The position numbers and the translations under genes are program-made. Source: Chloroflexota bacterium (GTDB lineage Bacteria; Chloroflexota; Dehalococcoidia; Lucifugimonadales; UBA3495). Taken from it: a stretch of DNA of 64,000 nt. The stretch's first letter is position 1. Each line of letters starts with the position of its first letter. The notes below the pieces were generated by a model. That model was given only the letters and a program-made list of their open reading frames with translations, made no database searches and was not told the DNA's origin. The stretch lies in contig JAQBVF010000013.1 in NCBI GenBank assembly GCA_027623675.1, positions 1-64,000 of the forward strand, written 5' to 3'. Below are positions 1,199 through 6,639 of this stretch, in pieces.

Positions 1199-2095
1199 CT
1201 AGACGTTGCGCTGTTTGGGGTCTAGGCGCTCCCGCAACCAGTCTCCGCATAGATTGAAGGCCAGCACCACCAGCATTATGGCGATGCCGGGCGCGGTGGT
1301 GACCCACCAGGCGGTGGAAACGTACTCTCTTCCCTCGGCCAGCATGCCGCCCCAGGCTGGCGTGGGGGGTGGAATCCCAGCGCCCAGGAAGCTCAATGAT
1401 GCTTCAACGATGATAACCCAGCCCACCTGTAGCGTGAGCAGAACGATCAGGGTCGGCATCACGTTGGGTAGGAGATGCCGCATCATGATCCGCCAGTCGG
1501 AAGCGCCGGAAACCCTGGCCCGGGCGATGAAGTCGCGCTGCATCAGGCCGAGAACCTCGCCTCGAATGACCCGGGCGTAACGGGCCCAGAGCACCAGAGC
1601 GATGGCCACGATGACGTTCATCATGCTGGGGCCTAGAACCATCACCAACAAGATGGCAAATAGGATCAACGGGAAGGCCAAGGTGATATCGGCGAGCCGC
1701 ATCAAGATGGTGTCGATCTTGCCGCCGTAATACCCGGCGGTCAGCCCGATCAAGGTCCCGAAACCACCGCCGATCGCCAACGCGGCGCCGGCGATGATGA
1801 TTGAGACCCTGGCCCCGTATATGATCCGAGTGAGTACGTCCCGGCCAAGGGGGTCGGTTCCCAACGGATGGGACCACGATCCCCCGTCTTGCCAGAACGG
1901 GGGAATCAGCCGATCGGGAAGTCTGACCTGATAGGCGTCATGAAACGTGACCACGTCCGCCAGGACCGCCGCTAGAACGAACACCACGATTATGGACAAC
2001 GGTATGAGAGGAGCCGCCCTTAAGGCAGCATAAATCTTGGGCCATCGACTGGCCTTTACCGGTTGAATCGCTGCGGTTTCAATCGCTTTGGCCAT
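1199..2095 (-). CDS. peptide/nickel ABC transporter permease (DppC/OppC-like)
   Basis: HPLGTDPLGRDVLTRIIYGARVS, EAA-like loop FIARARVSGAS, EASLSFLGAG..P.WG. Confidence 0.92.
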   Translation of the reverse strand: MAKAIETAAIQPVKASRWPKIYAALRAAPLIPLSIIVVFVLAAVLADVVTFHDAYQVRLPDRLIPPFWQDGGSWSHPLGTDPLGRDVLTRIIYGARVSIIIAGAALAIGGGFGTLIGLTAGYYGGKIDTILMRLADITLAFPLILFAILLVMVLGPSMMNVIVAIALVLWARYARVIRGEVLGLMQRDFIARARVSGASDWRIMMRHLLPNVMPTLIVLLTLQVGWVIIVEASLSFLGAGIPPPTPAWGGMLAEGREYVSTAWWVTTAPGIAIMLVVLAFNLCGDWLRERLDPKQRNV

Positions 2096-2097
2096 GA

Positions 2098-3015
2098 TTA
2101 CTGAAGCCTTATTCTGGGGTCCAGATATGCGTAGGCTATATCAACGACTAGGCTGCTGAATATGACGATTGCGGCTGAGATAAGTACGACAGCTTGGACT
2201 ACGGGGAAGTCCCTGAATACTATACCTTGGAACATCAACCGCCCCATTCCCGGCCAGGCAAACACCACCTCCACCAGGATTCCCAATGTGATCAAGATGG
2301 CGATGTAGATACCGCCCAGGGTGATCACACTGATTAGGGAGTTTCTGAGCGCGTGTTTCCAGACCACTTTGAATTCAGACAGGCCTTTGATCCTGGCCAG
2401 CTTGATGTATTCACTGTCCATCGCTTCCAGCAAGCTGGACCGCAGCAGCCTTTGAATGGCCGCCACCGTGAAGAAGCCCAACGCGAAAGCCGGCATGACG
2501 TAGTGGTCCAACCCGCCCATTCCGGAACTGGGCAGCCAACCTAACTTTACGGTGAAGAGCTGGATCATAAGGATGCCCAGCCAAAATACGGGAACCGCCT
2601 GACCCAATACCGCAAATCCAGTGGCTAGAGTATCGATCCAGGTGCCTTTGTAGACCGCCGATAGAACACCCAAGGGAATTGATATCAGCAACACGATCAC
2701 GGCCGCGGCCCCGACCAACTTTAGAGAGTTGGGAAGTCGTTCTTTGATCAGGTCGGAAACCGGGGTTTTGCTCCGGAGAGAGTCGCCGAAACTACCCTGA
2801 GCGTAGTCCCGGATAAACAATCCGTATTGGACGACCAATGGTTTATCCAGGCCCATGGAACGCTGAATGTCTTCCAGGGCATCCGCGCCGGCATCGGGCG
2901 GTAGCATCAGAAGCGCCGGGTCCCCGGTGAGGCGCACCATTAGGAAGATGATGATTGATAGTGCGAAGAGGGCCAGTACGGCCTCTCCGACGCGTCTCAC
3001 GATGTATCTTTGCAT
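2098..3015 (-). CDS. peptide/nickel ABC transporter permease (DppB/OppB-like)
   Basis: GDPA, GLDKPLVVQY, EYIKLARIKGL..HALRN, VEVVFAWPGMG, DPRIR. Confidence 0.92.
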   Translation of the reverse strand: MQRYIVRRVGEAVLALFALSIIIFLMVRLTGDPALLMLPPDAGADALEDIQRSMGLDKPLVVQYGLFIRDYAQGSFGDSLRSKTPVSDLIKERLPNSLKLVGAAAVIVLLISIPLGVLSAVYKGTWIDTLATGFAVLGQAVPVFWLGILMIQLFTVKLGWLPSSGMGGLDHYVMPAFALGFFTVAAIQRLLRSSLLEAMDSEYIKLARIKGLSEFKVVWKHALRNSLISVITLGGIYIAILITLGILVEVVFAWPGMGRLMFQGIVFRDFPVVQAVVLISAAIVIFSSLVVDIAYAYLDPRIRLQ

Positions 3016-3082
3016 TCTCTACCCTGGCCATCGGAGTACGGATGCATTCTTGGGACGGGGTTGAGGCGCCAATCCCGGGACC

Positions 3083-3118
3083 AGACCACCCTGGACGATA
3101 CTTGGTCCAGGGTGGTCT
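3083..3118 (-). terminator. 14-bp stem-loop after the SBP gene (terminator or mRNA stabiliser)
   Basis: AGACCACCCTGGAC 3083-3096 / GTCCAGGGTGGTCT 3105-3118 is a perfect inverted repeat. There is no clear U-tract. Confidence 0.6.
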
Positions 3119-3124
3119 TAAAGT

Positions 3125-4792
3125 TTAACGCTGGAACAGGTTGGTGAAGCCATCGTCCCAGACCCGCTTGCCCAGGTCCCAGGACTCAATCTTGTCGTTG
3201 GTGGCGTAGGAGATATTCATGTTGCAGCAAGTAAGCCCCGAGTATTGGGCGTGCATGTACTGGTAAAGCTCCACGCTGGCCGCTTCTACGTCGGCCGGAG
3301 CTATCTCCGTCTCCATTTTTACGATGAGGCGGTCGATCTCCGGGTCGTTGGTGGACGTGAATGTCCCTTCGGAGTGGTTGAGGACCCGCATCAACCCAAC
3401 GAAGCCCGCCAACGGCCGGTTGGGGGCCGCCAGGTAACCCATTCCGTTGTCCAGTGTGTGGGCCAGTCGTTCTTGGCGGTAGGAAGCGTATTCGGTGGGG
3501 ATGATCTTCACGTTGACGCCGATATCGGTCAGATACGCGCCGACGGCCTCAATGAACCGTGGTCCTTCGGGAACGTCAGCCCTGGGGTATGACCGAATAC
3601 CTATTTCTTCCCCGTTGTAATCCGAAGCGTCCAGCAGCCGTTTGGCTTCAACCGGATCGAACGGATAGGCCTTCAGGGAATTGTCGGTGCCAGGGGCGAC
3701 GTCCGGCCAGGGATAGACCGCGGCGGGTGTGCATTGCCCAGCGAAAACGAATTCGCAGATCTCTTCACGGTTGATGGCCAGGTTAAAGGCCTTTCTGACA
3801 TTTATGTCCTTCCAGACCGAATTATCCCGCCATTGTTCATGAAAGTAGAGGCCGTTTACGCTGGCCCCTTCCTTGCTGAATATGTTGAGGCCGTCTTTCT
3901 TCAACTGAGGCGCCCGTTCGCGGGAGACGGAGATAACGTCAACCTCGCCGGCCTTGAGGGCTGCTATCCGGGTGCTCTCTTCCGGGATGATGCGCCAGAG
4001 GACGGTCTTGAACTTGGGGGCGCCGTCTCTCCAGTGATCATCCAAGGCTTCCATTTCCATGAAGTCGCCCTTCCGTTGGCCAACCCACTTGTAGGGGCCG
4101 CTGCCAACGGGGCTCTTGGCGAATTCATCGTTGCCAACCGACTCTGTGTAGTTCTTGGGTTGAATCAAGCCCTCAACACCTTGGATGTCGGATATGGCCC
4201 AGTTCAGGAACGCTGAAGGCTGAGAAGTGTCGATCACCAACTCCGTTGGCGATACTACGGTGATGCTGTCTTGGTCGGCGATACTGGCTTTGACAACGCC
4301 TTTATACGAGGTTATCGAGTCCTCGCTGGTTACCAAACCTATCGAGAATTTGACGTCTTCAGCGGTGAGCGGATCGCCGTTGTGGAACTTGATGTTGTCC
4401 CGCAGAGTGAAGGTCCACTTTCTTGCGTCGGGGCTCATGCTCCACTCTTTGGCCGCGCCGGAAGTTTTGTCCACTTCGCCGGCATCGTTGGTGCCGGTTA
4501 GCGGATCAAAGAGGAAACGCATGTAGGCTTTTCCAAAGGCGAATTCCTGCCACACGCTCGGGGTCTCGTTCCCCATGTCGGTTATGGCGATGGTCAGTTT
4601 GCCCTCAGGTTTGGCGGCTGCCGGGACGGATGTGGCGGCAGCGGTGGCAACCGGCACTCCGGTGGCCGTTGACCCGCCACTCGGGGCTTCGGTGGATTCG
4701 GAAGACGAGCCGCAGGCCACTGCCACGATAAGCATCGTCGCGGTGAGCACTGCGATGAGAAACGGAACGCGCAACATTCGGTGCCTAGCCAT
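3125..4792 (-). CDS. ABC transporter substrate-binding lipoprotein, family 5 (peptide/nickel)
   Basis: Lipobox VAVAC, WTFTLRDNIKFHNGDPLTAEDVKFS, PVGSGPY, VRKAFNLAINRE. Confidence 0.92.
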   Translation of the reverse strand: MARHRMLRVPFLIAVLTATMLIVAVACGSSSESTEAPSGGSTATGVPVATAAATSVPAAAKPEGKLTIAITDMGNETPSVWQEFAFGKAYMRFLFDPLTGTNDAGEVDKTSGAAKEWSMSPDARKWTFTLRDNIKFHNGDPLTAEDVKFSIGLVTSEDSITSYKGVVKASIADQDSITVVSPTELVIDTSQPSAFLNWAISDIQGVEGLIQPKNYTESVGNDEFAKSPVGSGPYKWVGQRKGDFMEMEALDDHWRDGAPKFKTVLWRIIPEESTRIAALKAGEVDVISVSRERAPQLKKDGLNIFSKEGASVNGLYFHEQWRDNSVWKDINVRKAFNLAINREEICEFVFAGQCTPAAVYPWPDVAPGTDNSLKAYPFDPVEAKRLLDASDYNGEEIGIRSYPRADVPEGPRFIEAVGAYLTDIGVNVKIIPTEYASYRQERLAHTLDNGMGYLAAPNRPLAGFVGLMRVLNHSEGTFTSTNDPEIDRLIVKMETEIAPADVEAASVELYQYMHAQYSGLTCCNMNISYATNDKIESWDLGKRVWDDGFTNLFQR

Positions 4793-5098: not shown

Positions 5099-5131
5099 GA
5101 GAAGGCGCGCCCCAACGAGGCGCGCCTTCTC
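5099..5131 (-). terminator. GC-rich hairpin downstream of the OsmC-like gene
   Basis: GAGAAGGCGCGCC 5099-5111 / GGCGCGCCTTCTC 5119-5131. Confidence 0.6.
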
Positions 5132-5160: not shown

Positions 5161-5661
5161 CTAATCCAGGCTGAAAGCCTTACCGTTCAGCGTCAACGTC
5201 TCTTCGAACGGGGTTGGGTTGGCCACGGCGGCCCTCACCCAGCAGCCGTTCTTAGCGTTCCGCAGCATGGCGGCTACACGTTGCGGGTCGTCGGGCGACT
5301 CGATCTCGTAGCTGGTCTCCACCTTGGGCGCTCCGGCCCGAATGGTGCCCGCTAGTACCGACCCGGCGATATCGAAATGGACCCTCGCTTCGGCGCGGAC
5401 CTTGGTGATGTTCACCTTCATTAATTGAGAGTACCTCTCAATCTGAGTCATCTCTCAAAACAGGATCGATGCGGCGAAATAATGCAACGGCGCCGGGGCG
5501 GAGGAGTGACCTCCGATGGACTCAGGCTCATCGCACATGATCTCGTGGCCTCTGACCTTGGCCCGGCGCAGCATGTTGCCAAGATCATCCACTTCACATT
5601 CGATGACCATGGCCCGGTGGCTGCCCCCCTCGGGAAACGGATCGTAGTTGGGCGTAGTCAT
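5161..5661 (-). CDS. OsmC/Ohr-family protein, 166 aa, probable selenoprotein (Sec at codon 69, TGA 5457-5455)
   Basis: The two track ORFs (5455-5661 and 5161-5451) are in frame: ..DEPESIGGHSSAPAPLHYFAASILF-TGA-EMTQ.. The TGA sits at the first catalytic Cys position and the second Cys is in NAKNGCW. A SECIS-like hairpin follows. Confidence 0.85.
5424..5442 (-). promoter_or_regulatory. candidate bacterial SECIS element
   Basis: mRNA AUUGAGAG-GUA-CUCUCAAU forms a perfect 8-bp stem starting 12 nt after the UGA, with G first in the apical loop. Confidence 0.7.
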
Positions 5662-5891: not shown

Positions 5892-6590
5892 TCAGACCGT
5901 ATACCGCTGCAGGTTTCCGGTGCGCAGCCCGGTCACGGGGTGGAACTTCTTGGAGTGCAGGGCTTTCAGGAATTCGGCCTCGTTCTTAACCTCGTCTTGG
6001 AACTCGGTCAGGAACTTGCCCAGCCCGTGGACCGAGTGAGCATCGCTGCCCCCGGTTACGGGCATCTTGAGAAGCCCGGCGACCTCCATGGCGAAGTCGT
6101 TCTCCCGGTCGATGGTGCCGCCGTTTGCCACCTCCACCGCATCCGCCAACTTGAACACGGGGTGTTCCAGGGCGTCATGCGGAGTCTCGGGAAGATCGTC
6201 GGGCACCGCCTGGTAGATGAGGGCGCGGCTCCGGTTGCCGTTGCTGCTGAGCACGCCCCGGAAGGGATGGGCCGAAACGACGAACCCGCCGGCCGCGGTG
6301 GCTGCTTTCCGCAGTTGCGCGGCCTTGTTGAAACCCGCCTGGTATTGGTCCATGCCGAAGGCCAGCATGTGGCCCATGTCGGTCTCAACTTCCATGGCGC
6401 GGATCAGCACCACGTTATGCAGGGCAGCGAATCGTTTGAACTCGTGGCGGTCCCAGGGGCCGGAGTGTTCGGTCAGGCAGAGGCCGCGCAGACCCAGCCG
6501 GTCGGCTTCCAGGATCAGGTCTTCGGGGGTCAGGCTGCTGTCGCTGCTGCCTTTGGTCGTGTGTATGTGGAGGTCGAATAATCGGGCCAT
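5892..6590 (-). CDS. PHP-domain metal-dependent phosphoesterase
   Basis: DLHIHT, TEH, AHP and GGSDAH motifs. Start placed at ATG 6590 because the upstream extension is heptamer repeat. Confidence 0.88.
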   Translation of the reverse strand: MARLFDLHIHTTKGSSDSSLTPEDLILEADRLGLRGLCLTEHSGPWDRHEFKRFAALHNVVLIRAMEVETDMGHMLAFGMDQYQAGFNKAAQLRKAATAAGGFVVSAHPFRGVLSSNGNRSRALIYQAVPDDLPETPHDALEHPVFKLADAVEVANGGTIDRENDFAMEVAGLLKMPVTGGSDAHSVHGLGKFLTEFQDEVKNEAEFLKALHSKKFHPVTGLRTGNLQRYTV

Positions 6591-6604
6591 TGGTAGCGGT
6601 TCGC

Positions 6605-6639
6605 TCTCTGCTTTCAGCGGTCTGCCCTCAGCCATCAGC
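6605..6639. repeat. five tandem degenerate 7-mers (NNTC[A/T]GC)
   Basis: TCTCTGC TTTCAGC GGTCTGC CCTCAGC CATCAGC. Confidence 0.6.

Follow-up and report, generated by a model that had tools for sequence, protein, structure and literature searches.

The window analysed here, a stretch of 64,000 nucleotides from a Dehalococcoidia contig, carries on its minus strand a gene of the OsmC-like selenoprotein family, with a reading frame that continues through an internal TGA. This UGA is almost certainly decoded as selenocysteine. We hold with high confidence the overall reading of one conserved frame, a UGA that very likely specifies selenocysteine, and a product predicted to act as a selenol/thiol oxidoreductase, with organic hydroperoxides as its most likely substrates. 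The gene is one more member of a published family, and neither the family nor the use of selenocysteine in this lineage is new. The 'OsmC-like protein' selenoprotein family (COG1765, UXXT motif, three sequences, figured SECIS) was described in 2005 in the selenoproteome of the Sargasso Sea (PMC1088965). PMC9312934 lists it under the UxxT motif, and Table 1 of PMC13188914 places it among families 'predicted with high confidence' rather than experimentally verified ones. The present gene shares with this family (COG1765/PF02566) the domain, the UxxT motif (UEMT here), a hairpin of the SECIS type and a score well over the cut-off of the family model; nothing of substance sets it apart in a comparison made by domain, motif and model rather than by representative accessions.

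One reading frame across an internal TGA

The locus comprises the following features (window coordinates):

5161 to 5661, minus strand: complete gene of the OsmC-like selenoprotein, 166 aa, from an ATG at 5661 to a terminal TAG at 5163-5161; matches NF041052 and PF02566; predicted OsmC/Ohr fold (pLDDT 91.8)
5455 to 5457, minus strand: codon 69, an in-frame TGA for a putative selenocysteine in the position of the first (peroxidatic) cysteine, in the UxxT motif (U-E-M-T); 70 of the 72 loci that cover the codon have TGA, and 97 of 109 homologs (from the best 150 of 615) as well as PDB 3CJE have Cys
5423 to 5443, minus strand: hairpin of the bacterial SECIS type, eight Watson-Crick pairs and one G-U; from inverted repeat, RNAfold, covariation, invariant G and synonymous shuffles
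5242 to 5244, minus strand: Cys140 (in NGCW), putative resolving cysteine, 71 residues past U69; 69 of the 70 TGA loci have a Cys codon here, and one locus is truncated
5449 to 5451, minus strand: ATG (Met71), taken by gene callers as start of a false second ORF of 96 aa; absent at this codon in 13 of 70 TGA loci
5099 to 5131, no strand assigned: perfect GC-rich inverted repeat of 13 bp that encloses a 7-nt loop and lies 30 nt downstream of the OsmC-like stop codon; from the inverted-repeat search

From 5661 down to 5161 the frame consists of 68 codons, the TGA (5457-5455), directly followed by GAG and ATG, and 97 codons in all after the TGA. A plain ORF caller splits the locus into 5455-5661 (68 aa) and 5161-5451 (96 aa). 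The original prediction had joined these two seemingly separate ORFs into a single frame of 166 residues by read-through, and its coordinates and motifs proved correct; the strand, which it had left unstated, is the minus strand. The read-through protein matched the NCBIfam model NF041052, 'OsmC-related (seleno)protein', with 164 bits, against a cut-off of 95, and the match extends from position 2 to position 144 of the 144-position model. Pfam PF02566 (OsmC) was matched with an E-value of 4e-13 over residues 51-153, a match that spans the TGA and includes the motif U69-E-M-T72; the 68-aa half by itself obtained no Pfam match. Judged from sequence, both ORF halves are one protein.

Databases hold this gene largely in pieces. 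Among 46 near-length database matches, 43 cover at most 58 % of the read-through protein, the NCBI accessions listed for a close cluster comprise just the C-terminal half of 96 aa, and a protein collection stores the 68-aa N-terminal half from the window as a protein of its own. The expectation that standard pipelines would split the gene was thus borne out, and the joined frame is a correct rescue of a gene cut in two. It had also been called a hidden selenoprotein, which is true with regard to the pipelines; from the field it was not hidden, being a member of a published family with its own NCBIfam model.

The internal stop codon is a conserved character. A tblastn search over 76 loci (L014-L089) aligned 73, and 72 of these cover codon 69. 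This codon is TGA in 70 loci, the present gene included; the other 69 are 31-90 % identical to it. TGC is present in two loci, both of which score below the NF041052 cut-off. One of them is a Cys-type OsmC-like paralog in the same genome (L015; contig C47, 25819-26205, minus strand), with 63 bits against NF041052 and about 23 % identity. When 301 evenly sampled genomes of the class were searched with NF041052, 26 had a match over the cut-off, and of the 27 matches in all, 26 hold exactly one TGA; the 27th begins past the codon at a contig end. Two further stretches of the genome were rejected: C43:1953, which resembled a second Sec-OsmC, had no tblastn match to the protein, and C10:127291 was dropped likewise. 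The records of the closest relatives are assigned to Dehalococcoidia, Chloroflexota or SAR202. Two short contigs (L045 and L089; 3.3 and 3.8 kb) bear the titles Pseudomonadales and Gammaproteobacteria; their copies of the gene are 88-90 % identical to this one, as in the Dehalococcoidia records, and the contigs are probably mis-binned.

This conservation bears directly on the possibility that the gene is a pseudogene or that a sequencing error turned TGC into TGA. Only the stop codon itself speaks for such a reading; its occurrence in the 69 other loci, down to the most distant of them and with frames intact on both sides, refutes it, and its probability is practically nil. Two DNA sequencing runs carry the whole stretch with zero differences; they belong to one study, possibly the source of the assembly itself, and are not independent of it. 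One metatranscriptome run yielded short contigs of relatives, mostly less than 95 % alike, one of which bridges the TGA; nothing is concluded from them on expression.

Homologs with a sense codon point to the residue that is replaced. Among the best 150 of 615 cluster representatives, 109 span position 69, and they present there 97 Cys, as had been expected, next to 8 Ser, 3 Gly and 1 Ala; none has Trp. The other 41 of these best 150 (of 615) are fragments, and their five N-terminal halves all stop exactly before residue 69. Such halves, present in databases as separate proteins, and the sequence TGA-GAG-ATG in 57 of the 70 TGA loci would agree with two translationally coupled small genes of 68 and 96 aa, in which the TGA is a real stop and translation re-initiates at the ATG one codon later. 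We consider this arrangement very improbable. The ATG is absent in 13 of the 70 loci, one of which is without any Met across the entire downstream part (ATG only was tested). The split would remove exactly the catalytic residue and cut through the central helix 58-80, the homologs are single chains with Cys, and the conserved hairpin described below would be left unexplained.

At the flanks of the gene, the 13-bp repeat at 5099-5131 is possibly a terminator-type hairpin; it is without a T run and was not called by the terminator scan, which requires one. A sigma-70 scan returned a single 9/12 site upstream of the gene (5808-5780), which was not counted as evidence.

SECIS-type hairpin, selenocysteine machinery and genetic code

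In bacteria, the SECIS element is a stem-loop that directly follows the UGA on its 3' side and bears a G in a small apical loop (PMC1088965); its general position is also given in PMC9499178. A stem-loop of this kind, immediately 3' of the UGA and with a small G-bearing apical loop, is present in the OsmC-like gene. It starts 12 nt past the TGA as a perfect inverted repeat of 8 bp, with arms at 5424-5431 and 5435-5442 and a 3-nt loop GUA (5434-5432). The stem and its G-first loop, already noticed in the original prediction, were recovered by inverted-repeat search and by RNAfold, which added a ninth pair, G-U, and gave z-scores of -2.25 for 60 nt and -3.95 for the 27-nt hairpin.

Synonymous shuffling of 15 codons, with the peptide unchanged and the codon usage of this genome, produced a G-loop stem of at least 8 bp in 1 of 20,000 shuffles and an equal folding stability in 3 of 3,000. 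Behind the terminal TGA of long ORFs, a stem of at least 7 bp follows in none of 277 cases. Covariation was studied on 54 distinct sequences of 48 nt; these loci are related and the tested structure was taken from the present sequence, so the shuffle counts are not probabilities. Hairpin cells were paired in 83.7 % as against 25-46 % with slid partners, changes on both sides occurred in 43 cells versus a shuffled mean of 11.8 (reached in 0 of 500 shuffles), and the covariation score was 0.295 (0 of 500). Of the five covariation measures, the two that count pairs or kinds of pair fell short of significance, with 57 and 67 of 500 shuffles. All 70 loci share the G located 20 nt past the TGA (5435), and 66 have GGT as the triplet at this place. 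The codon of Arg76, the source of the G's of the loop, is AGG or CGG in 67 of 67 loci with Arg, compared with 48 % of the Arg codons of the genome. Rare codons also lie inside the hairpin: TTA, TCT and ATT account for 2 %, 7 % and 11 % of their families. As far as alignments and codon choice can tell, the hairpin is under selection as RNA. According to established bacterial selenocysteine biology, SelB would bind the hairpin just 3' of the UGA and deliver the Sec-tRNA(Sec).

The components for this decoding, for which a search of the genome had been proposed, are all present. A full-length tRNA-Sec with TCA anticodon is encoded on contig C23 (Rfam RF01852, 70.4 bits); selA (554.8 bits), selB (347.7 bits) and selD were each over the cut-off, and selD has an in-frame TGA of its own. 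The use of selenocysteine in this lineage, implied by the original prediction, was supported, but for the class it is already in print. Among the genomes of the class, selA was over the cut-off in 218 of 301 (72 %); 25 genomes have the TGA form, and selA exceeded the cut-off in 23 of them. One of the other two (G090, 95 % complete) contains a full selB and had no selA match; in the second (G275) selA is partial, and a fragment resembling selB is located at the end of a contig. Because of the base rate of 72 %, the co-occurrence of selA and the TGA form is consistent with selenocysteine decoding and supports it weakly.

The Cys at the corresponding position of homologs would also suit a changed genetic code in which UGA is read as Trp or Cys. 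Of 1,254 long ORFs, however, 277 still end with TGA as an ordinary stop, and 7,616 TGG codons were counted, which indicates that the code has not been reassigned. Moreover, the only tRNA with a TCA anticodon that was found is the full-length tRNA-Sec, and Trp is absent from this position in the 109 spanning homologs (best 150 of 615). We therefore regard a changed code as extremely improbable and retain selenocysteine as the meaning of the internal UGA.

Gene neighbourhood and further selenoprotein candidates

The gene neighbourhood of the OsmC-like loci gave no functional lead. In the window, a cluster for an Opp-type ABC transporter with a substrate-binding protein and two permeases is located downstream of the gene (1199-4792, minus strand); the substrate-binding gene is kept at more than 70 % identity in the loci of ten close relatives. 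The upstream gene of the PHP-domain CehA/McbA family (5892-6635, minus strand) occurs only at the locus of this genome and at none of the others. Luciferase-like monooxygenase genes, named by eye from their sequence, are frequent neighbours of OsmC-like loci. An ORF at 12-554 of the window (minus strand) we take to resemble the N-terminal part of an IS21-type transposase.

A genome-wide scan for in-frame TGA codons with codon-score filters missed the OsmC-like gene and selD, and its result is thus not the complete selenoproteome. Among the loci L090-L113 of this genome (G000), 23 candidates were scanned, and in 19 the TGA falls on the Cys or the redox motif that characterises a known type of selenoprotein: five of the UGSC family, two rhodaneses, two PrdB/GrdB-like, two DsbA-like and two AhpD/CMD proteins, and six singles (deiodinase-like, thioredoxin-NHL, DUF3179, BtuF-like, peroxiredoxin-like and TlpA-like). 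Together with a sixth UGSC protein (L113, read by eye), selD and the OsmC-like gene, the genome has at least 22 selenoprotein candidates. This richness is consistent with PMC13326102, which places two Dehalococcoidia in the top ten of BSepDB bacteria by number of selenoprotein genes (49 and 46).

One scanned candidate is an NMT1/THI5-like ABC substrate-binding protein (L091; G000, C21:2830-3750, plus strand) of 306 aa by read-through, with the TGA at 3046 as codon 73. It had a weak match to Pfam PF09084 and no NCBIfam match at 1e-6. Over 14 loci in 11 of 401 genomes of the class, the aligned codon is TGA in four (G000, G460, G106, G030), Cys in nine and uncovered in one, and in G000 a hairpin follows the TGA. 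The substrate-binding selenoproteins in Table 1 of PMC13188914 are SaoB, SaoX and BtuF; an NMT1-like name or motif does not appear in that table, and our literature search found no paper on an NMT1-like selenoprotein. By its sequence pattern the protein is a candidate for an undescribed selenoprotein family, possibly of greater novelty than the OsmC-like finding.

A further in-frame TGA was observed in a gene for an MFS transporter (L105; C13:88898-90193, minus strand), at 89464 as codon 244. The six relatives found all have TGC there, the hairpin is weak and the TGA occurs in no other genome. It may be a recent change from Cys to Sec, a nonsense mutation or an assembly error.

Predicted fold and chemistry of the OsmC-like selenoprotein

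An AlphaFold2 model built from an alignment of 41 sequences reached a pLDDT of 91.8 and placed residue 69 in the middle of helix 58-80. It matched structures of the Ohr/OsmC fold, best 2ONF (Z 15.0, rmsd 2.3 Å over 139 residues); unrelated folds appeared only below Z 8. By sequence, the nearest protein of solved structure is PDB 3CJE (Jannaschia jann_2040; E 2e-12), in which a Cys is aligned with U69, its C-V-M-T-Q-I corresponding to U-E-M-T-Q-I here. These two and the other best sequence or fold matches, 1VLA, 2PN2 and 1ML8, are all structural-genomics entries. Proteins of the Ohr/OsmC fold have two redox residues about 60-70 aa apart; from U69 to C140 the spacing is 71, in 41 of 41 aligned proteins. 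The second Cys near the C-terminus was found within NGCW as foreseen, and U69 follows the second Pro of the P.P motif by 11 residues, close to the distance of about ten that had been proposed.

In Ohr and OsmC, an Arg and a Glu assist a peroxidatic and a resolving Cys, and lipoylated proteins recycle the enzyme; another group, the third, named 'Ohr-like' or YhfA and poorly characterised, has kept the two Cys and is without the Arg and Glu (PMC5384416, PMC8945050). The present protein shares the fold with Ohr and OsmC (E. coli OsmC 1NYE, Z 12.5; P. aeruginosa Ohr 1N2F, Z 12.1) and has the two redox residues at equivalent places. It differs in a structural-alignment identity of only 12-18 % and in the spacing, which is 64-66 there, and TIGR03561 (Ohr) and TIGR03562 (OsmC) did not match the read-through protein at E <= 0.01. 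Ten positions before residue 69, the Sec forms have Leu (31 of 41) or Met (10 of 41), whereas Glu occupies this position in 14 of 14 parsed canonical controls (5 Ohr, 9 OsmC; control row L139 was excluded as mis-extracted at a contig edge). The catalytic Arg of Ohr is placed in the loop that joins strands 1 and 2, that of OsmC in the loop preceding the catalytic helix. Counted as ungapped offsets from the Cys, the Arg position of OsmC would fall on Ile49 and that of Ohr on Gly28; an invariant Lys/Arg (41 of 41) is located at 32. With the Ohr-like/YhfA group the protein has in common the Ohr/OsmC fold, the two catalytic positions and the lack of the Ohr/OsmC Glu; Sec in place of the first Cys and the spacing of 71 residues are its differences. 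By these features it falls with the uncharacterised Ohr-like third group and is not a member of the Ohr or OsmC subfamily. To call it peroxiredoxin-like, as was done initially, overstates the function: Ohr/OsmC proteins are structurally distinct from peroxiredoxins (PMC5384416), and the catalytic Glu is absent here.

By analogy with Ohr and OsmC, Sec69 would attack the oxidant, a selenenyl-sulfide would form between Sec69 and Cys140, and a dithiol donor, probably a lipoylated protein, would re-reduce the enzyme. A selenenyl-sulfide redox cycle of U69 and C140 is very probable. A peroxidase activity is inferred from the same analogy, and the chances that a hydroperoxide is the physiological substrate appear about even. 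The fold was counted in favour of hydroperoxide reduction, as was the result that neither a canonical Ohr (TIGR03561, no match at E 0.001) nor a canonical OsmC was found in this 91 %-complete genome. Counted against it were the missing Glu and the conflicting reports on the Ohr-like TvOsmC, for which peroxidase activity was absent in one study and present in another (PMC5384416).

With somewhat less than an even chance, the protein is a true selenoprotein and not a peroxidase, U69 and C140 serving thiol-disulfide exchange, sulfur or selenium transfer, or a redox relay to a partner. The loss of the Ohr/OsmC Glu agrees with this, as does the structural-genomics origin of all best matches; several of these come from organisms with proteins classed as 'Ohr-like' and uncharacterised (PMC5384416), and the biochemistry of the third group 'remains to be investigated' (PMC8945050). 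On the other hand, the fold and the layout of the two residues are the same as in Ohr/OsmC, a selenol may not need activation by Arg and Glu, and the genome yielded no canonical Ohr or OsmC.

Lys/Arg32 and Glu45 are invariant among the Sec forms (41 of 41 each), and Asp44 is present in 40 of 41; in view of this pattern, Lys/Arg32 with Asp44-Glu45 could be an alternative activation pair. A tentative extension, which we consider rather unlikely as it stands, is that the Sec form is a fast selenium hydroperoxidase in which selenium, Lys/Arg32 and Asp44-Glu45 replace the Arg and Glu, and which stands in for Ohr/OsmC in Dehalococcoidia without them. In the literature searched, with most subscription journals outside the search, no description of a selenium-dependent peroxidase on the Ohr/OsmC fold was found, nor any work on the activity of the OsmC-like selenoprotein, SAR202 included.

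As a discovery the gene has low value, the family being known since 2005 and a curated HMM being available. Interest remains on the biochemical side, where the family is so far listed as a prediction and this gene would make a clean test case for assaying Ohr-like function. If the protein were indeed a selenium hydroperoxidase, this would provide a function for the uncharacterised Ohr-like group.
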